Assembly (NCBI GenBank): GCA_964463155.1
Contig: CAYXAY010000019.1
Coordinates: 1 to 13,490, forward strand
Reading direction: 5' to 3'
Source of the DNA: an uncultured archaeon
Lineage (GTDB): Archaea > Iainarchaeota > Iainarchaeia > Iainarchaeales > CSSED10-239
DNA: 13,490 bases
This document shows, one piece after another, positions 110-13,490 of the stretch. A model generated the notes under the pieces. The model was not told the origin of the DNA. It searched no databases and saw only the letters and a list, made by a program, of their open reading frames with translations. The position numbers and the translations under genes were made by a program. Position 1 is the stretch's first letter. Each line of letters starts with the position of its first letter.

Positions 110-3100
110 ATGGGAAAGAAACTATATTATTCTTTAGAAAACAAATGGTATGATTTTGTAGAAAATACAGGACTATATAAGATCACGGACAAGATAGATA
201 AGTTCATGCCGTCTTTTATATTTTTCATGCTTCTTGTGATTATGATAATTGCAGGAGTGTTCCTATTACTGCCAACAATAACTGGCGAAGGAGAAGTAGG
301 AATAACATTTAAAGTGATAGATGATTCTAGAGACCCAGTTCCACTTGCACCAGTAAGTGTCTCAACAATTGATAACTTCTACACATTAATAGCAAACGAA
401 GACGGAATCACCAGAAAAATAAATATTCCAAAAAACACAGAATACACAGTAGATATTGATTTTGTGGGAAGCAACTATGAAACATTTTCAATAGATTATT
501 TTGCAGAAGATAGTGAGCAAGTAACAATATATCTAACAGAAACCACAAGACAAACAACAACACGCTACACAGTAACATTGATTGATACATCCACAAAACA
601 AAAAATAAACGCGAACGGCAGGGCTGAGTTTACTTGTTCAAATCCAGGTGCAATAGCACCAGCTGCAGTAACAATAACAAACGGTGTGATTGATGTGAAT
701 GCTAATAGCAACTGTCAATTAAGGGCAACATCAATAACTCTTCAAGGCTATGACACAAGACATTCAACAGCTATAGGCCAGAACACAACTTCCATTGATT
801 TACAACGCACAACTATAGATTTAAAAGAAGCACATCCATTACATATCACAGTCAATGGAGAAGGCGGCGCTCCATTAACAGGAGTAACAGCAGCACTTTA
901 CGCTAATGGTGTAGCAATAGCAGGAAAAACTTGTGTAACACTTGCGGGTGTCTGTTCAATAACAGGAGTAGAAACAGGAAATTATGTCCTTAAAGTTACA
1001 GACACAAGGGTTGTCCCAGAATATGGTTCAACAAATGTTCCAATAACAATAACAGGAACAACAAACAGGACAGTTACTTTAACTAGAACAATTGCTGGTG
1101 ACATACGTGTAAAAGTAAGGAAAGCAAACGGTCAAGCAGTAGAAGGAGCAAACACTAAACTAAAATATGGAGACACAGAAATCTATAGTGGATTTTTAAC
1201 AGATGCAAATGGTTTAGTAACATTACCAGTTTATGATTTAACAAAAACATATAGAGTTGTTGTTGTAAAAGAAGGATACATGATTGCTTCACAAAGCAAT
1301 GTTACAGCAAGCGCAACAACACCAATAATAATAACCTTACAGGCAATAACCCCACAAACAGTTGCAACATTAAAGATTAGAGTTCTAAATAGCGAAACAG
1401 CAAAAGGCTTTTCTCATGCCCAAGTTGTTTTGTATGATGCTAAAACAGGATTTTTAACAGATTACGATTCACAAATAACAAACAGCGATGGAAACTGTAC
1501 ATTTAGAGTAAGCGCTGGCAGATATTATGCCAAAGCATTTAGAGGCTCATCAAGCGGCATAAGTGACGAGTTTGATTTTGATGTAAGAAATGCAACAGAC
1601 AGTAGTCCAGTAATTATTCCAATAGAGGTAGTTAAAGGAACTTTAAGAGTTTCTGTAGTAAACAACTATGGAGAGGCAGTTTCAAGAGCAAACATTATTT
1701 TATTTGACAAATATAGTTCTAGACAATCAGTGTGGGGCGGAGACCTCGCAAACATTGATGGAACATATGATATTTCTGAACTGACAGCGGACACCGAAGT
1801 TTATGCAGTAGTTTCAGATATACAGGATAACCTAGGCATGACACAATCAGAGTATGTTTATATTAGACCAGGAATTACAAACGATTTAAAAGTAACTCTT
1901 TATCCAAAGGTTTCTGCTTTACAAAAACCACAAATACAGTTTTTGGGTTTCTTTAATGATTCAGGAAACAAATTAAATGGATATTTAAGAGCTGGCGGAG
2001 ACTACAAGGCAAAATTCTTGTTATTAGTTCCACAAGAAAGAGATAGAGATGATGAGTTCCAAGAAGTTGGAGCGGTCATAAGAACTGGTTCAACAACAAG
2101 CACAGGAATCTCAACAACACCATATATGGAAAATGACAGCATTTACCTAAAATCAATTGATCTTCCAAACTCAGAGATTACAAAATACACTCAATATAGT
2201 TCTGAGGTAGGATATGATGGAATTGAAGATGAAGACACAATAACACAAGGCGATGCAAAATGGGCAAAGGTTGTTTTCAATGAAATCTATGGAAATAATT
2301 TTGCTAACGCTTATACAATAATGGCAGATGTTAAGATTAGAGATTCTGCAAGCTATGGTGAAAGAGTAAATGTCAGTTATTTGGGCTTTGGTTATAACGA
2401 AGACGATGAATATGAGACAGACCCTAATGATAATACAAATAATAATGATGTAGAATACATGACTTATAAAACAGAAAGCTTCAATATCGGAGAAGAACAA
2501 GCATGTTCAAAAGATTTCTGTTTTACTTTAAATATTACAGACCTATATGAAGACATAAGAAAAGACGTTGTTTCAGATTACACCGCAACCCCTCATCAAC
2601 ATTATAAGTTAAGGTTTGGATTAATCAATAACAATAAAAATAGAATACACAATAACTCAAGATTAGAACTTGAAAACAAAGATAAAGGCCTAACCTTTGA
2701 AAGCATAAACATAACTCAACCAAACGGGGTCCCCCAAAACATCACTCCAACAAACAACATCTACGAATATAAGATACCTGTTGAAAGATTTGACCCGCAC
2801 ACAACTCTTTCAGGAGAAATAAATTTCGTTCCTGTGTTAAAGGGAGATAGGCAGTTTGTTATTAGCTTTGTTTCTGATCAACAAGTAATATTTACAAAAC
2901 TTGTTGTAATACAGGTTTTGTCAGATAAAACATTTACTGTTAAAGTAACACCAGATGTCATACCTTCCGGAAAGAACTTCAATCTTCAAGTTGAAGTCAA
3001 AGATTCAAAGACAGGCATAGAGGTTGAAAATCCAGTAACCGTAAGAGTAAAAGATAGATTCAAAAGGGATTTGCTTGCAAACCCAGTACGAGTTGGACCA

Positions 3101-4660
3101 CTTGGAATTGCGTCAGTAAACAACATCCCTGGTCAACAATCCGGAGACAAGATTTATGTTTATGTTGAGGCACCAGAGTATGAGACAAGCATTACAGAAA
3201 AAGAAGTTACAGAAAATATCTTTAAGATTACTCCAACAAGACTAGGGGTGTCATTAAATATTAATACAAAACCACAAGACACAACAAAGTTTACACTTGA
3301 AAACCTAAGTGAAAACGAATTGACAATAGAGTCAATAAAACTAATAGGTAACGACAACCAGATTGATGTGATTGATGTCCAAAGAATAAACAATTCTCTT
3401 GCAGGATATTTCGGAACTGTAATACCTGGCTTTGACTCAAGCGAAACAGCAAACAACTACAATAACAAGCAAGAGATTGAAGCAAGATTCTTTACAAGCC
3501 CTAGAGTTGAAACAATACGCGAAGTTAGAAACATCAGCTCAAAGTTAATAATACAATTAAAGGACAAATACAATAAAGATTATGTTTGGGAAGCACAATT
3601 GCCAACAACAATAGCTGTAGGTTATGAAGGTTTAATGGACAATCCAAACTGTATAACTCTTTCAGATGGTTTCTGGGAGGCAACAGTAGTTGACAATTAT
3701 GTGGATAAGCAATTCACATTAAAGAATAATTGTGGAGTAAAGGAAAGACCAGTTCCATTAAACGGTGGCTTGTCAGCTAAAGTTGAGTTTGAAGGAAATC
3801 CATTAGGTCGGTTTACAGTAAATGTTGGAAACAGAGGCGTGGAATTATCACATGGTTATTTCAAGAACATCTATGACACAATTGACCAAGAGAAATCATA
3901 TAATGTTAATATAAGATATACTCCTGTTGGGAGATACACAGGAGACATCAAAGGTAAGATTATCTTTAGATCAGTTAATGCAACATCTTCTGGCAATCAA
4001 GAACTAATAACCGAATACAAGTTTGTATTGCATGTTGTTAGCCTAAAAGACTGTTATACAGTTTCAAAGAAAGTATTAACTGCTCCAGATACAGGACAAG
4101 CAGATGTCTTTGTCATTGAGAACAAAGGCTGTGGAGCAGAGACGATTTATAGATTGTCATGCGATGAATGTACAGGTCTTGTCATCAGCCCTAAGGAAGA
4201 TATAAAGGTTAGTGCAACAGGAACATCAGAAGAAATAAAAGTAATGTCTATGGGGGCAATGCCAGGGATGTACATACTAAACTTATATTCAAAGATAGGC
4301 GGAGCAAGAGGACATGAAAGAAATGTTGGGAGAGTAAGAGTAGAAGTAAGACCTGTAAGTCAATGTCTTGATCTTGACAGATATGAGTATGACTTGTACC
4401 GATATGCATATTCAGAAGGCAGCGGTCAAGCAACAACAGCAAAAAGCTTTGATATAGGAAACCTAATCAACCGTTGTTATGGCCAAGACGTAAAAATTAA
4501 AGGAACACTATCAGACGGGGTAAAATGGCGTGCAGCAGGCGTGAGCGGCTTAAGAGACGGGGTATTTACAGGCCTAACTTCCGCTTTAATAAAAAAAATA
4601 ATTCCAAACAAAAAGGCAAACACGGCAGAAATAAACCAGACAGCCACGGCGTCTTCATAA
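110..4660 (+). CDS. Giant membrane-anchored cell-surface protein (1,516 aa) with tandem carboxypeptidase-regulatory-like/Ig-like beta-sandwich domains and paired-Cys modules; function unknown ('A1')
   Basis: This is the longest closed ORF, running from ATG 110 to TAA 4658-4660. About 33 polar residues precede a hydrophobic helix, PSFIFFMLLVIMIIAGVFLLLP. Residues ~63-598 read as six repeats of ~85-90 aa. An example is IRVKVRKANGQAVEGANTKLKY..TDANGLVTLPV..YRVVVVKEGY, i.e. the 'V.V.D..G.P..GA.V.L...TD.NG.....L..G.Y.h.h..GY' pattern of CarboxypepD_reg/prealbumin-like folds. The C-terminal half contains Cys pairs (CSKDFC, NPNC..KNNC, KDC..NKGC). The protein is rich in Thr/Asn/Ile and no enzymatic motif was recognised. 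Confidence 0.9.
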   Translation: MGKKLYYSLENKWYDFVENTGLYKITDKIDKFMPSFIFFMLLVIMIIAGVFLLLPTITGEGEVGITFKVIDDSRDPVPLAPVSVSTIDNFYTLIANEDGITRKINIPKNTEYTVDIDFVGSNYETFSIDYFAEDSEQVTIYLTETTRQTTTRYTVTLIDTSTKQKINANGRAEFTCSNPGAIAPAAVTITNGVIDVNANSNCQLRATSITLQGYDTRHSTAIGQNTTSIDLQRTTIDLKEAHPLHITVNGEGGAPLTGVTAALYANGVAIAGKTCVTLAGVCSITGVETGNYVLKVTDTRVVPEYGSTNVPITITGTTNRTVTLTRTIAGDIRVKVRKANGQAVEGANTKLKYGDTEIYSGFLTDANGLVTLPVYDLTKTYRVVVVKEGYMIASQSNVTASATTPIIITLQAITPQTVATLKIRVLNSETAKGFSHAQVVLYDAKTGFLTDYDSQITNSDGNCTFRVSAGRYYAKAFRGSSSGISDEFDFDVRNATDSSPVIIPIEVVKGTLRVSVVNNYGEAVSRANIILFDKYSSRQSVWGGDLANIDGTYDISELTADTEVYAVVSDIQDNLGMTQSEYVYIRPGITNDLKVTLYPKVSALQKPQIQFLGFFNDSGNKLNGYLRAGGDYKAKFLLLVPQERDRDDEFQEVGAVIRTGSTTSTGISTTPYMENDSIYLKSIDLPNSEITKYTQYSSEVGYDGIEDEDTITQGDAKWAKVVFNEIYGNNFANAYTIMADVKIRDSASYGERVNVSYLGFGYNEDDEYETDPNDNTNNNDVEYMTYKTESFNIGEEQACSKDFCFTLNITDLYEDIRKDVVSDYTATPHQHYKLRFGLINNNKNRIHNNSRLELENKDKGLTFESINITQPNGVPQNITPTNNIYEYKIPVERFDPHTTLSGEINFVPVLKGDRQFVISFVSDQQVIFTKLVVIQVLSDKTFTVKVTPDVIPSGKNFNLQVEVKDSKTGIEVENPVTVRVKDRFKRDLLANPVRVGPLGIASVNNIPGQQSGDKIYVYVEAPEYETSITEKEVTENIFKITPTRLGVSLNINTKPQDTTKFTLENLSENELTIESIKLIGNDNQIDVIDVQRINNSLAGYFGTVIPGFDSSETANNYNNKQEIEARFFTSPRVETIREVRNISSKLIIQLKDKYNKDYVWEAQLPTTIAVGYEGLMDNPNCITLSDGFWEATVVDNYVDKQFTLKNNCGVKERPVPLNGGLSAKVEFEGNPLGRFTVNVGNRGVELSHGYFKNIYDTIDQEKSYNVNIRYTPVGRYTGDIKGKIIFRSVNATSSGNQELITEYKFVLHVVSLKDCYTVSKKVLTAPDTGQADVFVIENKGCGAETIYRLSCDECTGLVISPKEDIKVSATGTSEEIKVMSMGAMPGMYILNLYSKIGGARGHERNVGRVRVEVRPVSQCLDLDRYEYDLYRYAYSEGSGQATTAKSFDIGNLINRCYGQDVKIKGTLSDGVKWRAAGVSGLRDGVFTGLTSALIKKIIPNKKANTAEINQTATASS
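209..274 (+). other. N-terminal transmembrane/signal-anchor helix of gene 1 (aa 34-55)
   Basis: An uninterrupted hydrophobic run, PSFIFFMLLVIMIIAGVFLLLP, follows a Lys/Asp-rich leader (..YKITDKIDKFM). No signal-peptidase-like A-x-A site is obvious. Confidence 0.7.
296..1903 (+). other. Array of six tandem ~85-90-aa beta-sandwich (CarboxypepD_reg-like) domains in gene 1
   Basis: Repeated starts are VGITFKVID, RYTVTLID, LHITVNGE, IRVKVRKA, LKIRVLNS and LRVSVVNN. Each is followed by a '(T)D.(N/D)G' turn and a '..Y.h.h' strand. The array ends at Tyr598. Confidence 0.55.
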
Positions 4661-4804: not shown

Positions 4805-4882
4805 ATGAAATCAAATCTAAAATTTGTTTTAGGACTAACAATGGCTTTGTTGCTATTGTTTAGTGTAGGAAATGTTTATGCG
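4805..4882 (+). other. Predicted Sec-type signal peptide of gene 2 (aa 1-26, cleavage after VYA)
   Basis: A basic n-region (MKSNLK) precedes the hydrophobic core FVLGLTMALLLLFSV and a small-residue c-region (GNVYA). Confidence 0.7.
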
Positions 4883-7708
4883 GGGGGTACTTCTAACAAT
4901 AACACCACAGCAACACTCTCCGCCTTACAGTCTGCCTTTAATCTGATTACTGGCGTTTTTGGCAAGCTTGTCGGTGGACCGTTCTGGCTACACGGTATTG
5001 TCGCAGGAGCAACATCTGCATTTAAAACATACAGTGCTCTTGATCAAACAATCAAAATGAATCTAAGAAGTGAAAGAGTAAATGTCTCTGACAACGAGTT
5101 TGTTTCAGAGGACGCAAAAAAAGAACTAAGGATTGATTTTGACAACAACGTAGTATTAACAGACCAAAATGTATTAGATATTGATTTCATAGTTACAAGA
5201 AAAGCAAAAGAGTTTAAAGATACACAAGGACGAGAAAAAAGCCCAAAAATCAGATGGGCAGAAAAAACAGAGACAATAGATGTTATAGATGTTAATAACC
5301 AAAAAACAAAAGGACAAAAAAGAGCAATATTGTTTGAAGACTTAAACCAAACAATAAAGCAAGCATCAGAATATAGAACATTAGTAATTGAATACAAACA
5401 AGCAGAGTTTGGAAGACAGCCAGTAAAGATAACAATTGAAGACATTGACGATTTATATGGCAATGGAATGAGCTGGTTAAGAGTATTTACAACAGGTGTA
5501 GACCAGGCAAAGGAAAAACTTATTGACAGAATGGACAATTTAGAAAACGTATATGCTAAAAGAGAACCAAACCCATCACCAAACAAAGCACAAAAATTCC
5601 GTTTATTATTCAACTCAAGAGTAGATGATAATGAGACAATAAGCTCAGAACTACTTGATTGTACAAACGAAAAAGGAGACCCGATAGGTTCAACAGGAAC
5701 AGAAGTATTACCAAAAGTAGCATACAATTGGGACTTTAAAGAAAATAACACAGTAATCCCAATAGCTGGGGAAACTTCAAAAGTAGTAAACAACACTTGG
5801 TGTGATGTTGCAACAAATGGAATATATTGTGATGCAACACAAACAACAATAGAAGTATTACAAAAAATAAACACAATAAATGAGTTTGTAGAACTACATC
5901 GCGCAAACTTCACTTGCCCAACAGGAGCAGAAACACAAAACCTAGCAAGTGACATTAACAATGTTGGAATTGTTTATCTAAATGTAACTTCAGTTACTGA
6001 AAAAAAAGCAACATTTGAATACAAGATAAGAGGGAATTATCAAACTACAATACTACCTGCACCAAGAACACTATTTGATATTAACTATACTGTTCAAAAG
6101 AAGGCAGAGAATTCATTTAATTGGATAACAATAGCATCAGGGACAAAAATAATCGGTCACGAATACCTAAATAATGGCATCATAGATGAAACAATCCAAT
6201 CAACCTTTTCAACAGCAGCAACCGCAGAGGACACTATAAAAATAAAAGTATTCTTAACAAACTTTAATGCAATAATATCAAACAATGAAATTGGAAACAA
6301 CATAATAGACAATTCTTTAGAAGTTCAAACAAGTATAGAAGGGGGAACAGCAGGATGTACTCTAGAAAAGACAACAGAAAACCTAAAGAAATACCATCCT
6401 GAGTTTGATGAAAAACTATACAACTTCAAAGCATATCTAATGAAAGATGGATACAGTAATGATTTCAAGAAGGACTTTGATGAATATTACAGATTAACAT
6501 TTAACACAGGAATACCGAACTGGTATGATAATGCTGAAACATCATATTCTCCATTATACAAATACTTTATAGATCCGCAAAAATTCAAATTCAAACAAAG
6601 ATTTGCTAACGAAATTGAACAAACTATGCTTCCGGGACCAGGAAGATACAATGTAAAGATACTGATATATTATGATGATAATTGGAAACTATTCAATGAC
6701 AGAGGAGACATAACAGGAAAGATAGAGATCATTCTTGACAAAGAACAAAATCCAGAGCTTGATTCTCCACTATACTATATGCCACTTGACGGAATGGTAG
6801 GAAGCACAGGAGACAAGACAAGAAATGGCTATGGTGTAGATTATTTAGATGATAAGGTTCCAATATTTTTAGATTCTCAACACAATTATACTACAGCAAT
6901 GTTTACTGAAGGCTATCTTTCTTCAAACACAATTTCAACAATAAAGACAAAAGAGATAAAGGACTTTTCTACAATGAACAACGGAAACGAAAGAGGAAAG
7001 CTATTATCAATAACTAGAGCGCAAAACAATATATTAAACTTAAGATATATACCCTCAAGACCAACACCAGTAGCATTAAAAGTAACAAACACAAAAGCAA
7101 ACACACATGCCTATGCTTTCTATAAGTTATCAGTTGGTTTACCAATAGATCAAGGCGGAGAAGTTGCAACACCTGGTTTAAGTCTAGCAAATTGGACAGG
7201 AATTGGAGCAAGCAAACAATGTAGAGACTTTTCTGGAATACCAATACTTGAAAGATTCCTAGCAAGTGATGACCTTGTTTCAACAGAATCAGAACTAGGA
7301 CCAGTAACTCAAAGCCAAAGCCACAGTTATGGTGTTGAATGGAATAAGAATATTATCAGAAGAACAGGAAATGTTTGGTTATATACAATATTCTACACTC
7401 CTGCAAATTTCAAGACAGGCCCAGGAATAAGTTATTTGTATATTGATTCTGCAAACGACAATGCATTATTGTTTACAATAGATAACACTCAAAGAGACGG
7501 AAGTCAAAACGTAGCCTTAAAAAATAGATTTGAAAAAGACATTAAATCAATAACTGATGTCTTTGAATTAGTAAAAAACAAAAATGCATGTATATACAAC
7601 GACAGCAAATCACTAGATGTATTCTACAATCCAAAGAAAATCTCAGAGCCATTGACAGACGCTATTGAACACGGCCTAGACAGAGAAGGTGCTTGTATAA
7701 AGCACTAG
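4805..7708 (+). CDS. Secreted 967-aa protein with 8 Cys, unknown family ('B1'), probable partner of gene 1
   Basis: The ORF runs from ATG 4805 to TAG 7706-7708. The N-terminus MKSNLKFVLGLTMALLLLFSVGNVYA|GG is a classical n-h-c signal peptide with no lipobox Cys. It is followed by a Gly/Ala-rich hydrophobic stretch (aa ~43-73). The mature part has an even number of Cys (8). No catalytic motif such as HExxH was recognised. Confidence 0.9.
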   Translation: MKSNLKFVLGLTMALLLLFSVGNVYAGGTSNNNTTATLSALQSAFNLITGVFGKLVGGPFWLHGIVAGATSAFKTYSALDQTIKMNLRSERVNVSDNEFVSEDAKKELRIDFDNNVVLTDQNVLDIDFIVTRKAKEFKDTQGREKSPKIRWAEKTETIDVIDVNNQKTKGQKRAILFEDLNQTIKQASEYRTLVIEYKQAEFGRQPVKITIEDIDDLYGNGMSWLRVFTTGVDQAKEKLIDRMDNLENVYAKREPNPSPNKAQKFRLLFNSRVDDNETISSELLDCTNEKGDPIGSTGTEVLPKVAYNWDFKENNTVIPIAGETSKVVNNTWCDVATNGIYCDATQTTIEVLQKINTINEFVELHRANFTCPTGAETQNLASDINNVGIVYLNVTSVTEKKATFEYKIRGNYQTTILPAPRTLFDINYTVQKKAENSFNWITIASGTKIIGHEYLNNGIIDETIQSTFSTAATAEDTIKIKVFLTNFNAIISNNEIGNNIIDNSLEVQTSIEGGTAGCTLEKTTENLKKYHPEFDEKLYNFKAYLMKDGYSNDFKKDFDEYYRLTFNTGIPNWYDNAETSYSPLYKYFIDPQKFKFKQRFANEIEQTMLPGPGRYNVKILIYYDDNWKLFNDRGDITGKIEIILDKEQNPELDSPLYYMPLDGMVGSTGDKTRNGYGVDYLDDKVPIFLDSQHNYTTAMFTEGYLSSNTISTIKTKEIKDFSTMNNGNERGKLLSITRAQNNILNLRYIPSRPTPVALKVTNTKANTHAYAFYKLSVGLPIDQGGEVATPGLSLANWTGIGASKQCRDFSGIPILERFLASDDLVSTESELGPVTQSQSHSYGVEWNKNIIRRTGNVWLYTIFYTPANFKTGPGISYLYIDSANDNALLFTIDNTQRDGSQNVALKNRFEKDIKSITDVFELVKNKNACIYNDSKSLDVFYNPKKISEPLTDAIEHGLDREGACIKH

Positions 7709-7721
7709 TTTTTTTATTTTT
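7689..7721 (+). terminator. Hairpin plus oligo-T terminator overlapping the gene 2 stop codon
   Basis: GTGCTT (7689-7694) pairs perfectly with AAGCAC (7700-7705) around the 5-nt loop GTATA. This is followed by TAG, then T7 (7709-7715), A, T5 (7717-7721) and further T-runs. It is compatible with a bacterial intrinsic terminator or an archaeal oligo-T terminator. Confidence 0.6.
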
Positions 7722-7798
7722 GTAATTTTTAAATTTTTACCCCTCTATTTATAAGATTTACAAAAAAATCAAACCTATGATGTTAAATACTTAGTAAT

Positions 7799-8041
7799 AT
7801 GATTTATATGCGGAAAACTATGAAGTTTGACATTGTTCTAGAAAAACAAAAAGAAGGCGGTTATACAGTCTATGTTCCATCTTTGCCTGGTTGCATCTCC
7901 CAAGGCGAGACAGAAAAAGAAGCCATAACAAATATTAGAGAAGCAATAGAAATGTATATTGAAGAAATCAATTCAAATAAACTAAAAACCATGTTAAATT
8001 CTTTTTCTATCAAACAAACACAAGTGACTATTAATGTATAA
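7799..8041 (+). CDS. hicB: HicB-family antitoxin (UPF0150/HicB-like), short form without a recognisable DNA-binding domain
   Basis: MKFDIVLEKQKEGGYTVYVPSLPGCISQGETEKEAITNIREAIEMYIEE matches the HicB N-terminal consensus (..E..e.GGY.a.VP.LPGC.sqG.T.eEA..n.keAIe.yle). The true start may be ATG 7808 or ATG 7820 (MKFD..), both in frame. The TAA stop is at 8039-8041. It overlaps hicA by 8 nt. Confidence 0.85.
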   Translation: MIYMRKTMKFDIVLEKQKEGGYTVYVPSLPGCISQGETEKEAITNIREAIEMYIEEINSNKLKTMLNSFSIKQTQVTINV

Positions 8042-8252
8042 GATTGATAATCTTTCAGCTAAGGATGTAATAAAGATTTTGCAACTTAAAGGTTATTTTA
8101 TACTAAGACAAAAAGGCAGTCACATGCTACTTAAAAACAAAGACAACAAAATAATGGTCATTCCAAACCACAAAACCCTAAAAATAGGAACAACGCGTCA
8201 AATAATCAAATCTATTGACTTAATAAAGCAAGGAGTTGAAAGATTATTATAG
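8034..8252 (+). CDS. hicA: HicA-family mRNA-interferase toxin (YcfA-like)
   Basis: LSAKDVIKILQLKGYFILRQKGSHMLLKNKDNKIMVIPNHKTLKIGTTRQIIKSIDL matches the HicA consensus (l..kelik.L.k.Gf...RqkGSH..l.......t.vP.H..elk.GTl..IlkqagL), including the GSH histidine. Its ATG lies within the end of hicB (ATGTATAA overlap), which indicates translational coupling. The TAG stop is at 8250-8252. Confidence 0.9.
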   Translation: MYKIDNLSAKDVIKILQLKGYFILRQKGSHMLLKNKDNKIMVIPNHKTLKIGTTRQIIKSIDLIKQGVERLL

Positions 8253-8322
8253 CCACAATTAACTTCTTAACTTAAATAACCAATAACCTTTAAATATCTT
8301 TCTTTCTCTAATATAAATAGAT

Positions 8323-8330
8323 TTTAAATA
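8323..8330 (+). promoter_or_regulatory. TATA-box-like TTTAAATA about 20-25 nt upstream of ATG 8349 (candidate archaeal-type promoter, short or absent leader)
   Basis: TTTAAATA is centred about 23 nt upstream of the start codon of gene 5. Only a degenerate GGATGTG (8334-8340) is available as an SD. AT-rich background makes chance TATA-like matches common. Confidence 0.25.
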
Positions 8331-8348
8331 TATGGATGTGAAAAGATT

Positions 8349-11300
8349 ATGTCATTTGCTTTAAAATACCAGGCATTTTTAGAGAAAATAAATACTAGAA
8401 TGCCAATCAAATGGTTAACAAAACCAATAGATAAGATTCATCCTCTAACTTCTTTTTTCGTGTTTATATTAATAGTCTTAGCAATATTGTTCTTTATCTT
8501 TAAACCACACATTCTTCCTGAAGCAAAAATAGAATACATGTCTTTTACAATAGGTCTTACAGACAGCAATGGACAGCTACTTAAAAACTTTGAGTTTGAA
8601 ATAAAAAATTTCAAAGACAATGTAACTCAAACCCATAGGACAGGAAACAACGGGCAGTTAATCATTGAACTTGACAAGTTTGGACATTATTCTATTATTG
8701 TTGACAAAAAAGGATATAAGTACACAGAAGAGTCAATTGATTTGTCAAGAGACAAACAACACTTTGTAATACAATTATTTAGTCTTCCAACAACCCAAAA
8801 CAAAGCCTTAATGTTTGTTGGAACTGACGGCAAACCAATTTCTGAAAACCTAAATGTTACAATCACTTGCCGAGACGGAACTACAATAGACCCATCAACA
8901 GCAACAGTGATAAACGGAACAGGAAACTTTACGGTTCCAGTATCCTGTAATTATCTTGTTGCAACCGCTATAGGAAACACATATTCTGGACAAAACATTC
9001 CAATCAACCAAACAACAGGAATAGTGACTGTTCCTCCAAGAGCAGCAAACACAAGCGTTGGAAGAGTGACAATAAAAACTAGTAGTAATAATAATTTTTT
9101 AGATAGAATAACACTAAGAATATACAAGGAAGGAAACACCATTGATTCAATTGCTTCTGGACAAACAACAACAGGTTACAAGTCTTTTGCAAACATAGAG
9201 ACAGGAAACTATATAGTTATTGCAACAGACGATTCGTTAAGATATCAAACAGCAAACTCAACATTTACTGTCACAAAAAACACAGAAACACAAGTGACAA
9301 TTGACTTGGTTCCAATTGCAGGAAACGAAACGACCCCAGGAATAAACACAAGAGACATAAAAGTCATAGTAAAGGATTTAGATACAAACCAAGAGCTAGA
9401 CTCAACATCTCTAACAAACATAATCTTAACAACAACAATTGGTGGTTCTCCTCAAACAGTAGACACAAAACCATATGTTTCTGCAGGAGTAATCTTTAGA
9501 ATTGATTCAAGCAAGCAATATTCATTAACTGTAAGAGCAGAAGGCTATATTGCCCAAGTAAAAAACATAACACCAAACATTAATGATTATATGATTTTTT
9601 TAGAAAAAGAAACAGTAAGCAATGTTTCTGATATCAATGTCAGTGTGAGAGATGAAGACAACCTTCCAGTAATCGGTGCAACACTATTGATTTATGATGG
9701 TAGTTCTGAATTTTTAGATACTAGATTTAGATCAGTAATAACTGACAATAACGGCAGCACAAGCTTTGATAACATACCAAGAGGATATTATTTTATTAGG
9801 CTAAGAAAAAACAATGTTGTTTCTCAATCCCCAAAATTTAATCATAATCCTCCAAGCGACACAAATCTTTCAATGAACATCAACATAGGTCAAGGAACAA
9901 TCAATCTTACAATAAAAAATACCGCTAATGAGATTATTAATTTTGCAAACATAAGGATATTTGATATTAGTGGAAGAGAAATAGGAGTTGACCAGGCAAC
10001 GCAAGCAGGAACATACACAAGGAGACTAAAAGCCGACAAGACGGTTTATATAAAGATTTCAAAAGACGGCTATTTTGATTATTACACAGAGTTATTGCCA
10101 ATTATTGGTGGAGAAACAATCAACAAAGAAATAAAACTAACAAGACTAGGGACAATAAATGTTCCAACAGCAGAGCTTGTTGGTTTATATAATATGCAAG
10201 ACCGTTCTGCAACCCACTTAACCCAAAACACAAGATATTATTTCAAGTTTAGAATCATTAATCCGAGTTCAGGAAACATTGGTTTAAGGTTTATGATTGG
10301 AGAGAAAAATACAGCAACAGAAGACATAGTTTATATAAAACCAATAACAGACTCCAAAGCAAACATTAGTTATTATAGTAATACAAACCTTGACATTGTT
10401 GCTCAAGATGTTCCTGCAAAAATAGCGGACGCAATCTTTGTAAATGCTAGTCAAGCAGTATATGAACTATTAATACCAGTAACCACTGTACAAGCAAGAA
10501 GAGGGCAAGCAATTCCTATCTATTATTCTGTTTTTACTGCTAATCCTCCAGCAATAAATAACCTAACAAACCAAAATGTCTATTACATTGATGTTTCAGA
10601 AATATGTTCAGAAAACTTTTGTATATCAGGCCAATATCTTGATATTGAAAGTGATATTATTTATGACTTGTCTACAACAAACCCAATGGTTGTAAACAAA
10701 AACTATGACTTAAAATATGTTTTAACAAACGCAAAGTCAAATGTTTACATAGGTAATAGACTGTCAATAACAAATGTAGAAAACTCGTCAGAAATGCAAG
10801 CGCATTCAATTGATATTAGCTATTACAATATCTTTGGTAATGGTTTTTCATACACCAGTAATTCTGGAAACCAATTAAGAAACAAAATACCATTTACTTC
10901 TGAGTTCTTGAATCTACCACAGATTAATGTTTATGATAAGATTAATATTAACTCCAAAATAAAACCAGCAGTTCTTGGAACAACAAGATTGCAAAACAAG
11001 ATAATCTCTAACCAAGCAATAGCATATAACCAATTCATTAGTTTTAATGTTTCACAACAATATCCTTTCACAATAGATTATGAACCAAAGAACATAGTTC
11101 CAGGAAGGCCATTTAACATGACAGTAACTGCTCTTGGCAACTCGGCAATACCAGTAAACAACGCCATAGTAAATGTTTATCAAAGACTTGCAAACAACCA
11201 GCTAGTAACAGTAACAAATGGAAGCTTTAGAACAAACGATTATGGACAAGCAATTGTTGCTCTTCCAGCAGTGCGAAATGGTGAAAAAATAATTATTGCT

Positions 11301-13490
11301 GTTGAGAAAAGCGGATATTACGCTCAACCATTAGAGATAACAATAACTCAAAACATCTTGTCTTTAAAGCAAGGAACAACAGCAGTAACTGACAATGCGC
11401 CATTTACAATTAATGTTCATAAGTCAAATGCTCTTGGCACAGAAAAAACATTAACAATAATAAATAAGACAAACTACCCATTAAGATTAAAGCAATTTAG
11501 AGACGATAGTTTTAGCTTTAGAAATTCAAACTATTTAAATATAGAACAATTACAAAACCACTTAAACAGCCAAGTAGATGGTATAGTTATTCCAGCTAAT
11601 GGTGAAGACAACCTAAAAATAAAATTATCAGCATCTCAAGATGCAACAAATGTCACAGAAACAATAAACATAACCGGAAACATAATAGGTTATGTCACTG
11701 TTGACAACTCAATAACAGAATATCCTTTCAATATCCCAATGAATGTTAAGATTTCAGTTGGAGAAGGAGTAGAAGCAGACGATTGTTTAACATTTACAGG
11801 AATGAGCAATCCTTTTGAGGCAGTTGTTGGAGGAAATGGCTTTACAACAGAAAGCTTTACAATAATAAACAACTGTAAAAGAAAAGGAAACGATGAACAA
11901 GGCGTTGTTCTAAACGCTCTAAGGGCAAAAGTTGTAAACACAAAAGACCAATATGGTTATTACACTTTAAGAGTAAGAGAAAGAACAATAACACTTTCAG
12001 AAGGCGCTTACACAACAATACTTAGTGATTTAGAGCCTGGCCCATATGATGCTACACTAACCTATTACTCCATGGATAAAAAGATTGGAGATGTAGAAAG
12101 CAAGATTTACATTAATGCTCAGATAGAGACAGACACTGGTTTAAAATATGTAAACACAACAAGAGATGTTGCATTTACAACAAAGATAGCAATAAGAAAG
12201 ATAGAAGACTGTATTGACTTCTATGATGACGGCAAAAAGATAAACAACATGCTTGTTATTCCTAAAGAAATCAACACAACAGAAGTAAAAGACATAACAA
12301 TAAAAAACAACTGCTCAACACTTGGAAGATTTAAGTTATACTTTTGTGGAGAATACAAAGAATATGAGGGTTGTCAAGAACTAAGATACGAAAACATGCT
12401 AGGATATCTACAAAACGAGCTAAGCTTCAATCTTGGAGAAGACTCACAAATTGTAGGAATCATTAAGCCAGATGTTCCTGGTGGCTATATAATCCCAGTA
12501 AGAGTATCAATCTTAAGCGACAGCGGAAGAGCAATAGCAACTGTTGAAAAAAGACTAAAAGTAAATGTACAGTCAGGAAGAGCAAACAGCCTATACATGG
12601 TAGATCCATTTATTGAAGTAGAAAAAGTAATAACTTCTAGAAATCAAAACACCTATGTAAGTCCAGAAGTCAAGCTACTAAACAGCGACATCAACAAGAC
12701 TCCTTGGTATTATGCTACACGGAAAGTTGGTGATACTGGATTTAGTAAATATATGAATGAATTTTCGCCGGAATCAAGTGTATTAGAGAAAGTTATATTT
12801 GTTAATTTTGAAACATTTACAGTTAATAAAGAAGGCATGGATTCATTTTTGCGTGGTTGGGTAGAAGCCACATATATAATAGGTATGTCGGTTATTTCAT
12901 TCGTTTGTTTGGTTTGTGCATTGGCTCTATTGACGGTTCAAATAGTTGATTGGTTATTACCGTCATTAACTAACAACTATAAAGAAGATGTAACTTATAA
13001 TATGCCAAAAATCTATGAAGATTTCTTAAAAACTAGCCCAGATATAGAAAAAGCGAAAACAATAAATGTTGTTGGTAATACCGATACAGCATATATTTCT
13101 ATAATTGACATTACGGGTGCGAGATATAGACAATTATATAATTTAAAAAATCATATACACGGGAAATTAATAAGCGATATTACTATTTCCCAAAAATTGG
13201 ATTTGTGTTCAAAAAATAATTACCAAACTGTTGGCGCAGATGCGTTTTGGAGTGAAAACCCAAAAAACTGTGATAATTTAAGAGTTACTACTGATGGTAC
13301 CGGATATAAATACACAGTAGATTGTGATGGCGCTTGGAATTTTGGTAGCAAAAAGATCGATGCAACATATAATGGCATATTAGAATGTAGATTTAATGAA
13401 ACAATTTGGCCAGAGCAAGCAGGCATCAAACCCCTTATCTTTAATGTGTCGGATACAAATTTAATTAATAGACTAAAAATGGGCGAAACA
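8349..13490 (+). CDS. Second giant surface protein, 3'-truncated by the window edge (>=1,714 aa). It is a paralogue of gene 1 ('A2') that continues past an internal TM helix into a Cys-containing tail ('B2'-like).
   Basis: This ORF is not in the ORF track. I translated the frame by hand, codon by codon, from ATG 8349 to base 13490 and found no stop. The nearest upstream in-frame stop is TAA 8325-8327, and ATG 8349 is the first ATG after it. The product starts MSFALKYQAFLEKINTRMPIKWLTKPIDKIHPLTSFFVFILIVLAILFFIF, followed by six CarboxypepD_reg-like repeats (e.g. INVSVRDEDNLPVIGATLLIYD..TDNNGSTSFDNIPRGYYFIRL). It then has CSENFC, DDC..INNC and EDC..KNNC modules collinear with gene 1. Confidence 0.9.
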   Translation, partial: MSFALKYQAFLEKINTRMPIKWLTKPIDKIHPLTSFFVFILIVLAILFFIFKPHILPEAKIEYMSFTIGLTDSNGQLLKNFEFEIKNFKDNVTQTHRTGNNGQLIIELDKFGHYSIIVDKKGYKYTEESIDLSRDKQHFVIQLFSLPTTQNKALMFVGTDGKPISENLNVTITCRDGTTIDPSTATVINGTGNFTVPVSCNYLVATAIGNTYSGQNIPINQTTGIVTVPPRAANTSVGRVTIKTSSNNNFLDRITLRIYKEGNTIDSIASGQTTTGYKSFANIETGNYIVIATDDSLRYQTANSTFTVTKNTETQVTIDLVPIAGNETTPGINTRDIKVIVKDLDTNQELDSTSLTNIILTTTIGGSPQTVDTKPYVSAGVIFRIDSSKQYSLTVRAEGYIAQVKNITPNINDYMIFLEKETVSNVSDINVSVRDEDNLPVIGATLLIYDGSSEFLDTRFRSVITDNNGSTSFDNIPRGYYFIRLRKNNVVSQSPKFNHNPPSDTNLSMNINIGQGTINLTIKNTANEIINFANIRIFDISGREIGVDQATQAGTYTRRLKADKTVYIKISKDGYFDYYTELLPIIGGETINKEIKLTRLGTINVPTAELVGLYNMQDRSATHLTQNTRYYFKFRIINPSSGNIGLRFMIGEKNTATEDIVYIKPITDSKANISYYSNTNLDIVAQDVPAKIADAIFVNASQAVYELLIPVTTVQARRGQAIPIYYSVFTANPPAINNLTNQNVYYIDVSEICSENFCISGQYLDIESDIIYDLSTTNPMVVNKNYDLKYVLTNAKSNVYIGNRLSITNVENSSEMQAHSIDISYYNIFGNGFSYTSNSGNQLRNKIPFTSEFLNLPQINVYDKININSKIKPAVLGTTRLQNKIISNQAIAYNQFISFNVSQQYPFTIDYEPKNIVPGRPFNMTVTALGNSAIPVNNAIVNVYQRLANNQLVTVTNGSFRTNDYGQAIVALPAVRNGEKIIIAVEKSGYYAQPLEITITQNILSLKQGTTAVTDNAPFTINVHKSNALGTEKTLTIINKTNYPLRLKQFRDDSFSFRNSNYLNIEQLQNHLNSQVDGIVIPANGEDNLKIKLSASQDATNVTETINITGNIIGYVTVDNSITEYPFNIPMNVKISVGEGVEADDCLTFTGMSNPFEAVVGGNGFTTESFTIINNCKRKGNDEQGVVLNALRAKVVNTKDQYGYYTLRVRERTITLSEGAYTTILSDLEPGPYDATLTYYSMDKKIGDVESKIYINAQIETDTGLKYVNTTRDVAFTTKIAIRKIEDCIDFYDDGKKINNMLVIPKEINTTEVKDITIKNNCSTLGRFKLYFCGEYKEYEGCQELRYENMLGYLQNELSFNLGEDSQIVGIIKPDVPGGYIIPVRVSILSDSGRAIATVEKRLKVNVQSGRANSLYMVDPFIEVEKVITSRNQNTYVSPEVKLLNSDINKTPWYYATRKVGDTGFSKYMNEFSPESSVLEKVIFVNFETFTVNKEGMDSFLRGWVEATYIIGMSVISFVCLVCALALLTVQIVDWLLPSLTNNYKEDVTYNMPKIYEDFLKTSPDIEKAKTINVVGNTDTAYISIIDITGARYRQLYNLKNHIHGKLISDITISQKLDLCSKNNYQTVGADAFWSENPKNCDNLRVTTDGTGYKYTVDCDGAWNFGSKKIDATYNGILECRFNETIWPEQAGIKPLIFNVSDTNLINRLKMGET
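8448..8501 (+). other. N-terminal transmembrane/signal-anchor helix of gene 5 (aa 34-51)
   Basis: The hydrophobic run TSFFVFILIVLAILFFIF follows the leader ..KPIDKIHPL, in the same position and context as in gene 1. Confidence 0.7.
8538..10148 (+). other. Array of six tandem beta-sandwich (CarboxypepD_reg-like) domains in gene 5
   Basis: Repeat starts are MSFTIGLTD, ALMFVGTD, GRVTIKTS, IKVIVKDL, INVSVRDE and INLTIKNT. The array ends at about residue 600, against 598 in gene 1. Confidence 0.55.
12873..12947 (+). other. Internal hydrophobic (transmembrane-like) helix of gene 5, aa 1509-1533
   Basis: YIIGMSVISFVCLVCALALLTVQIV is the only long hydrophobic run after the N-terminal anchor. It is flanked by ..FLRGWVEAT and DWLLPSL. 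Confidence 0.6.

Follow-up and report, generated by a model that had tools for sequence, protein, structure and literature searches.

What a toxin-antitoxin pair does between the genes of a giant surface-protein cluster, and whether the cluster has any need of it, is the question raised by the archaeal locus analysed here, a stretch of 13,490 nucleotides (the window). Between gene 2 and gene 5 of the window two small ORFs lie on the same strand, at 7799..8041 (+) and 8034..8252 (+) (Table 1). The initial annotation had identified them as a hicB-hicA module, with the antitoxin gene first and an 8-nt overlap, and had suggested that the module either stabilises the surface-protein island by addiction or marks a duplication or insertion junction. 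The order of the genes, their overlap, their coordinates and their sizes were all correct.

Table 1. Features of the window and contents of the slot between gene 2 and gene 5 in the window and in related loci (L numbers).
Feature	Position	Strand	Description
Gene 1	110-4660		1516 aa; co-oriented with genes 2 and 5
Gene 2	4805-7708		967 aa; co-oriented with genes 1 and 5; secreted, without Pfam domain
Gene-2 hairpin and T7	7688..7715	+	left border of the slot
Whole hicBA cassette	7733..8257	+	about 525 bp, accessory; delimited by comparison with the empty-site allele (L021)
hicBA upstream region	7733..7819	+	putative archaeal promoter and short leader
hicB	7820..8041	+	73-aa antitoxin; N-terminal partial RNase H-like HicB domain alone
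hicB/hicA overlap ATGTATAA	8034-8041	+	8 nt; hicA ATG before hicB TAA; read from the sequence
hicA	8034..8252	+	72-aa toxin; dsRBD-fold RNase domain, Gly28-Ser29-His30 motif
Gene-5 upstream block	8258..8348	+	right border of the slot; ends at the gene-5 ATG, 8349
Gene 5	from 8349 to beyond the window end (8349-13490 in the window)		>1714 aa; co-oriented
Slot state hicBA	window, L001, L002-L005		hicB and hicA
Slot state X-Y	L008:12934-19657; L009:8213-12679		two large secreted-protein genes without Pfam domain; L008 (=L022) and L009 (=L018)
Slot state X'-Y'	L019:318-4750		diverged pair; L019/L020
Slot state empty	L021:3318-3435		116-nt intergenic region; T-rich terminator joined directly to the ATTAAC... 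promoter block

The identification of both genes was confirmed by profile searches, with scores above the Pfam thresholds. HicA matched HicA_toxin (PF07927) with 54.9 bits against a cut-off of 27 (E 9.4e-15) over profile positions 1-57 of 58, and HicB matched HicB_lk_antitox (PF15919) with 49.5 bits against the same cut-off of 27 (E 5.6e-13). The score of HicB against PF21748 (UPF0150), 26.1 bits, was slightly under the cut-off of 27.3. In NCBIfam, no meaningful match was obtained for HicB or HicA.

The AlphaFold2 model of HicA (pLDDT 81) exhibited a helix at residues 9-18, strands at 22-27, 30-34 and 40-44, and a helix at 51-60, in an alpha-beta-beta-beta-alpha arrangement followed by an additional C-terminal helix. 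With this model, Foldseek returned the T. thermophilus structure 1whz as the best match (TM 0.80), together with B. pseudomallei 6g26_E and S. pneumoniae 5yrz_B. In an alignment of 61 HicA sequences, built without the locus-derived ones, His30 is invariant, Gly28 and Ser29 are conserved at 90% or more, and Pro44, His46 and Gly52 vary very little. The residue opposite His30 in 4c26, the structure of a B. pseudomallei HicA mutant, is number 24, the site of the H24A replacement; the catalytic histidine, with the conserved Gly before it at the start of the second strand, is thus kept on proper alignment, as had been expected of a genuine HicA. In the B. pseudomallei toxin, the corresponding Gly22 and His24 are needed for toxicity (PMC11594946). 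By analogy with its family, the 72-aa protein would act as a translation-independent RNase of dsRBD fold using Gly28-Ser29-His30.

An exhaustive HMMER search gave 342 representative clusters of HicA relatives at E<=1e-3. A word-index homology search with the same protein returned the query alone, which is a limit of the index and no sign of an orphan. In comparison with the L002 pair, HicA evolves faster than HicB (65% against 79% identity, pN 0.20 against 0.12), and this faster divergence explains why the word-index search returned 482 relatives for HicB but the query alone for HicA. With pS values of 0.79 for hicA (saturated) and 0.62 for hicB, and a dN/dS of about 0.10 for hicB, both genes are under purifying selection.

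The hicB ORF can also be read from its first ATG, at 7799, which would give a protein of 80 aa. The start is likely the ATG at 7820, for a product of 73 aa, because the homologues begin at the same Met in the alignment, because gene callers give 73 aa on related contigs, because the L006 ORF opens at the equivalent position, and because the window, L002 and L006 have a weak SD-like motif (GCGGA/GAGGA/GGTGA) 5-6 nt before the start, that of the window being GCGGA at 7810-7814. The 80-aa form was dropped in favour of 7820 on the homologue starts, the L006 ORF and the SD-like motif.

Searched against the PDB, the HicB sequence matched the N-domain alone of B. pseudomallei 6g1c/6g1n, E. coli 6hpb and Y. 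pestis 4p78, and also 2yzt (TTHA1756), a stand-alone protein of 67 aa; these alignments stop at about residue 50-61, short of the DNA-binding domains of the long HicBs. The AlphaFold2 model of HicB, made from a 58-sequence alignment (mean pLDDT 81), presents strands at residues 6-9, 15-18 and 26-29 and a helix at 32-53. This beta-beta-beta-alpha part reached a pLDDT of 86-96, and the last 20 residues, with a pLDDT of 53-64, were assigned no strand in the monomer model. The top Foldseek matches of the model were all HicB or HicB-like proteins, HicB N-domains among them, with a probability of 1.00. By analogy with the solved HicAB complexes, the long helix of HicB, 32-53, would lie against the HicA beta-sheet and so inhibit the toxin.

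No RHH, HTH or other DNA-binding domain was found in HicB, either with Pfam or in the AlphaFold2 model, and there is no room for an RHH or HTH because 20 residues alone follow the helix. The description of HicB as the neutralising domain alone is thus right. The "short polar tail" that the initial annotation had added to it is indeed a short C-terminal stretch, but it is probably a linker followed by the fourth strand of a beta-beta-beta-alpha-beta fold, since it exhibits alternating hydrophobic residues in the alignment (...TQVTINV here, ...ILVAV and similar in the 66-aa forms).

Two observations were made on the hicA genes of related loci. The HicA of L005 (333-551) presents Asp in place of Gly28, i.e. 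KDSH for KGSH, with no other difference from the protein of L002/L004; the toxin may be attenuated, or the replacement may reflect a sequencing error. At L002:1559-1777 and L006:10215-10433, intact hicA ORFs had remained uncalled in the source annotations, so that "orphan" small HicBs in databases may often be annotation gaps.

The lack of the DNA-binding domain of classical HicBs could be taken to mean that the pair is a decaying remnant, i.e. an inactive module or one whose HicB was cut by a premature stop from an ancestor bearing such a domain, and the G28D replacement in L005 and the hicA genes missed by gene callers in L002 and L006 would fit this explanation. It is nevertheless extremely improbable. 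The relatives of HicB include hundreds of short proteins (the 120 listed have 51-110 aa, nearly all of them <80 aa), purifying selection on both genes is strong, and all catalytic and consensus residues are intact, as are the "missed" hicA ORFs of L002 and L006. Moreover, hicA overlaps the hicB stop, and no remnant coding for a DNA-binding domain can therefore follow. A truncated-pseudogene HicB was rejected on the short relatives and the purifying selection. The named relatives among those listed are annotated as HicB family antitoxins and come nearly all from Micrarchaeota, Woesearchaeota, Aenigmarchaeota, Nanoarchaeota or unclassified archaea, mostly DPANN.

In every neighbourhood inspected (L001, L002, L004-L007 and L011-L017), hicB stands before hicA. 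The 8-nt overlap of the window recurs in L001, L002, L004, L005, L006 and L007, as ATGTCTAA in L002, L004 and L005 and by coordinates in L006 and L007; the two genes overlap by 4 nt in L012-L017 and are separated by 4 nt in L011. The overlap is presumed to be a site of translational coupling: hicB would be translated first and the translation of hicA coupled to it through ATGTATAA, so that toxin would be made only with antitoxin.

The sequence upstream of hicBA is shared by the window with L002/L004/L005. Within it lie a TATA-like TTAAATA (7783-7789), kept in L002-L005, and a TTTATAA (7748-7754) found only in the window. No convincing palindromic operator was found in this region, where the inverted repeats are A/T runs alone, as expected at about 28% GC. 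Classical autorepression by the antitoxin appears unlikely because HicB has no DNA-binding domain; expression probably comes from a short constitutive archaeal promoter, with TTAAATA as the candidate TATA element, from read-through of gene 2, or from both. A scan for sigma-70 promoters gave 5 sites against 4.6 expected and is uninformative for archaeal DNA, and no Rfam match was obtained in the whole window.

On the left of the pair, the hairpin and T-run terminator that had been ascribed to gene 2 was recovered. Its stem (7688-7706) spans the gene-2 stop codon TAG (7706-7708) and is followed by T7 (7709-7715), and the scan for terminator-like sites in this region gave 2 sites where shuffled sequence would give 0.2, this stem being scored once per strand. 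The stem of the window is GGTGCTT-N5-AAGCACT; a hairpin with another stem, TTTAGTT-N8-AACTAAA, again with a T-run behind it, is present at the same place in L002 (~1213-1240), L008 (~12917-12945), L009 (~8197-8225) and L021 (~3298-3330). The hairpin overlaps the codons for the conserved C-terminal Cys-Ile-Lys-(His/Asn), and it may be either an RNA signal or a by-product of coding. On the right, the block upstream of gene 5 runs from 8258 with ATTAACTTCTTAAC, followed by TTTAAATA (8289-8296) and AATATAAATA (8310-8319). This block of about 90 nt (ATTAACTT.TTAAC...TTTAAATA...AATATAAATA...ATG) is kept in the window, L002, L008, L009 and L021, whatever the content of the slot.

Around the slot, genes 1 and 5 are remote paralogues of each other (~23% identity), each with an N-terminal membrane anchor and CarboxypepD_reg/prealbumin-like domains, and an ORF similar to gene 2 (~26% identity) follows the gene-5 homologue in L018 (13031-15301) and L021 (8544-10835). 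The duplicated pair of giant proteins, described initially as two A/B units, therefore looks right.

Genome and metagenome collections yielded relatives of the flanking genes, and the comparison of synteny proposed at the outset showed hicBA present, absent or replaced between gene 2 and gene 5. In all recovered relatives the gene-2 terminator region and the gene-5 upstream block are conserved, and the content between them differs, with at least four states (Table 1). L001, a contig from SRR11582140, is nearly identical to the window. The X and Y proteins of L008 and L009 are homologous (48% and 37% identity, respectively). The slot states do not track the similarity of the flanking genes. Between L021, where the slot is empty, and L009, where it holds X-Y, the gene-2 products are 99% identical and the gene-5 products 98%; the flanking proteins of L002/L003, which carry hicBA, are 81-93% identical to those of L021 and L009; and those of the window (hicBA) and of L008 (X-Y) are each 61-67% identical to all others. 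The 98-99% identical flanks around different contents in L021 and L009 show that the slot turns over at the strain level.

The hicBA pair is therefore an optional cassette of about 525 bp at an indel hotspot, and the surface-protein cluster does not need it. The left boundary of the cassette (~7733) is approximate, as it lies in the A/T-rich terminator. Of the two junctions that had been considered, the duplication junction is argued against by the slot comparison, and the insertion junction stands in a modified form, the site being a hotspot of indels. The four-state polymorphism of the slot is the mildly new result here, the toxin-antitoxin pair itself being of a known kind.

Post-segregational killing is a classical role of toxin-antitoxin modules, and on this ground the pair could be an addiction module that stabilises the island, the loss of which would free stable HicA from labile HicB and kill the cell. 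The presence of hicBA at the same place in two lineages with flanking proteins only 62-65% identical also favours this explanation. The slot comparison, however, makes it quite unlikely: the island is also present where the slot has no genes (L021) or is occupied by others (L008, L009 and L019/L020), and the change of state between contigs with 98-99% identical flanking proteins indicates an easy turnover. Furthermore, the same hicBA subfamily sits among housekeeping genes elsewhere, and inverted-repeat and plasmid searches gave no hallmarks of a mobile element around hicBA.

The proximity of hicA to gene 5 raises another possibility, that of a domesticated post-transcriptional regulator of the giant surface-protein genes, with HicA cutting the gene-5 mRNA or hicBA transcripts reading into gene 5. 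The genes are co-oriented, their position is kept in two diverged lineages, and the promoter block of gene 5 is only 5 nt away from the hicA stop codon. Runs of five or more T are absent between the hicA stop and the gene-5 start of the window (8253-8348), and hicBA transcripts may consequently read into gene 5 in this genome. L002, in contrast, has TTTTT directly after the hicA stop; in addition, gene 5 is intact and has the same promoter block in contigs whose slot is empty or has another content, and the relatives of hicBA adjoin unrelated genes. We consider such a regulatory role highly unlikely.

A further reading takes the stretch from the gene-2 terminator to the gene-5 promoter as a dedicated site of cassette exchange, where the conserved flanks, the stop-codon hairpin with its T-run on the left and the ATTAAC... 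block on the right, would serve as recombination arms that swap cargo at the strain level and hicBA would be defence or selfish cargo linked to surface genes. This is rather doubtful. If it were true, the alternative cargoes would be nothing, hicBA and differing pairs of secreted-protein genes, and hicBA would be tied to genes of the cell surface, a likely virus target or point of host contact. Inspection of the cassette revealed neither terminal inverted repeats nor a target-site duplication, the A/T-run matches being of the kind expected at about 28% GC, and a plasmid DNA search with 7700-8300 gave no match. Viral contigs contain 109 relatives of HicB, the best being 60% identical over 53 aa; these are distant and give no sign of a recent viral source.

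Taken together, this optional cassette is very probably a functional-looking, compact type II operon of Class 2 (see below) in an AT-rich archaeal genome, probably of the DPANN type, its most likely role being that of a selfish and/or defence element. As to what it does for itself or for the cell, our guess is selfish persistence and/or defence by abortive infection. The defence part of this guess is speculative, because PADLOC gave no defence-system match and because the neighbourhoods of the relatives of hicBA, made up mostly of housekeeping or glycosylation genes, are without defence islands. The turnover of cargo at the strain level in a conserved giant-surface-protein cluster bears on the diversification of cell-surface islands in uncultivated archaea.

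The contexts of HicA have been sorted into 14 classes (Gerdes 2024, mBio 15:e03293-23; PMC10865869). In Class 2, hicB precedes hicA, HicB has 63-103 codons and no recognisable DNA-binding domain, and the genes are close or overlapping; "the most prevalent" are Classes 1 and 2, which are also characteristic of archaea, no member of either has been analysed experimentally, and their regulation was flagged as an open question (PMC10865869). The pair of the window fits Class 2, with hicB first, 73 (or 80) codons, no DNA-binding domain and an 8-nt overlap. It is an ordinary pair of this already described kind, and its arrangement is not unusual: the reversal of the classical order pointed out in the initial annotation is real, but it is no departure, being that of Class 2 (PMC10865869) and the rule among the relatives of HicB. 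As a toxin-antitoxin module, the pair adds little, being a further uncharacterised example of the commonest, already catalogued class of compact hicBA. As orthologous Class 2 loci that have diverged but kept their upstream region, the window and L002-L005 could offer a test case for the regulation of operons whose HicB has no DNA-binding domain.

Among Class 2 pairs, that of the window resembles the Nanoarchaeota pair MCK4670649.1/MCK4670648.1, with HicB 69% identical over residues 1-48 and HicA 44% identical; a further example of the class is MBZ7977438.1/MBZ7977437.1 of Campylobacter sp. RM12654. The window shares with them the antitoxin gene in first position, a HicB in the 63-103-codon range without a DNA-binding domain, a HicA of about 70 aa and overlapping genes. 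Its HicB belongs to a subgroup of 72-78 aa, and the linker that leads into its last strand (...KLKTMLNSFSIKQTQVTINV) exceeds that of the common 66-aa form by about 7 residues. The genes share 8 nt instead of 4 nt, although overlaps of -8 are also found in the published Class 2 table (PMC10865869).

With the classical hicAB systems of Classes 3/4 (E. coli K-12 6hpb, B. pseudomallei 6g26, Y. pestis HicA3B3 4p78 and S. pneumoniae 5yrz), the pair has in common the dsRBD fold and the catalytic histidine of HicA and the N-terminal neutralising domain of HicB. In these systems the toxin gene comes first, and HicB, of about 135-150 aa, has at its C-terminus an HTH or RHH that forms dimers and represses the operon's own expression (PMC11594946), whereas in the window the order is reversed and the DNA-binding domain is absent from HicB. 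The T. thermophilus proteins TTHA1756 (2yzt, 67 aa) and TTHA0281 (2dsy), which are single-domain, are similar to the HicB of the window in size and fold and rank among its top matches, and the HicA of that organism, 1whz, is the best structural match to the HicA of the window; these proteins are bacterial, and their identity to those of the window is low (17-28%).
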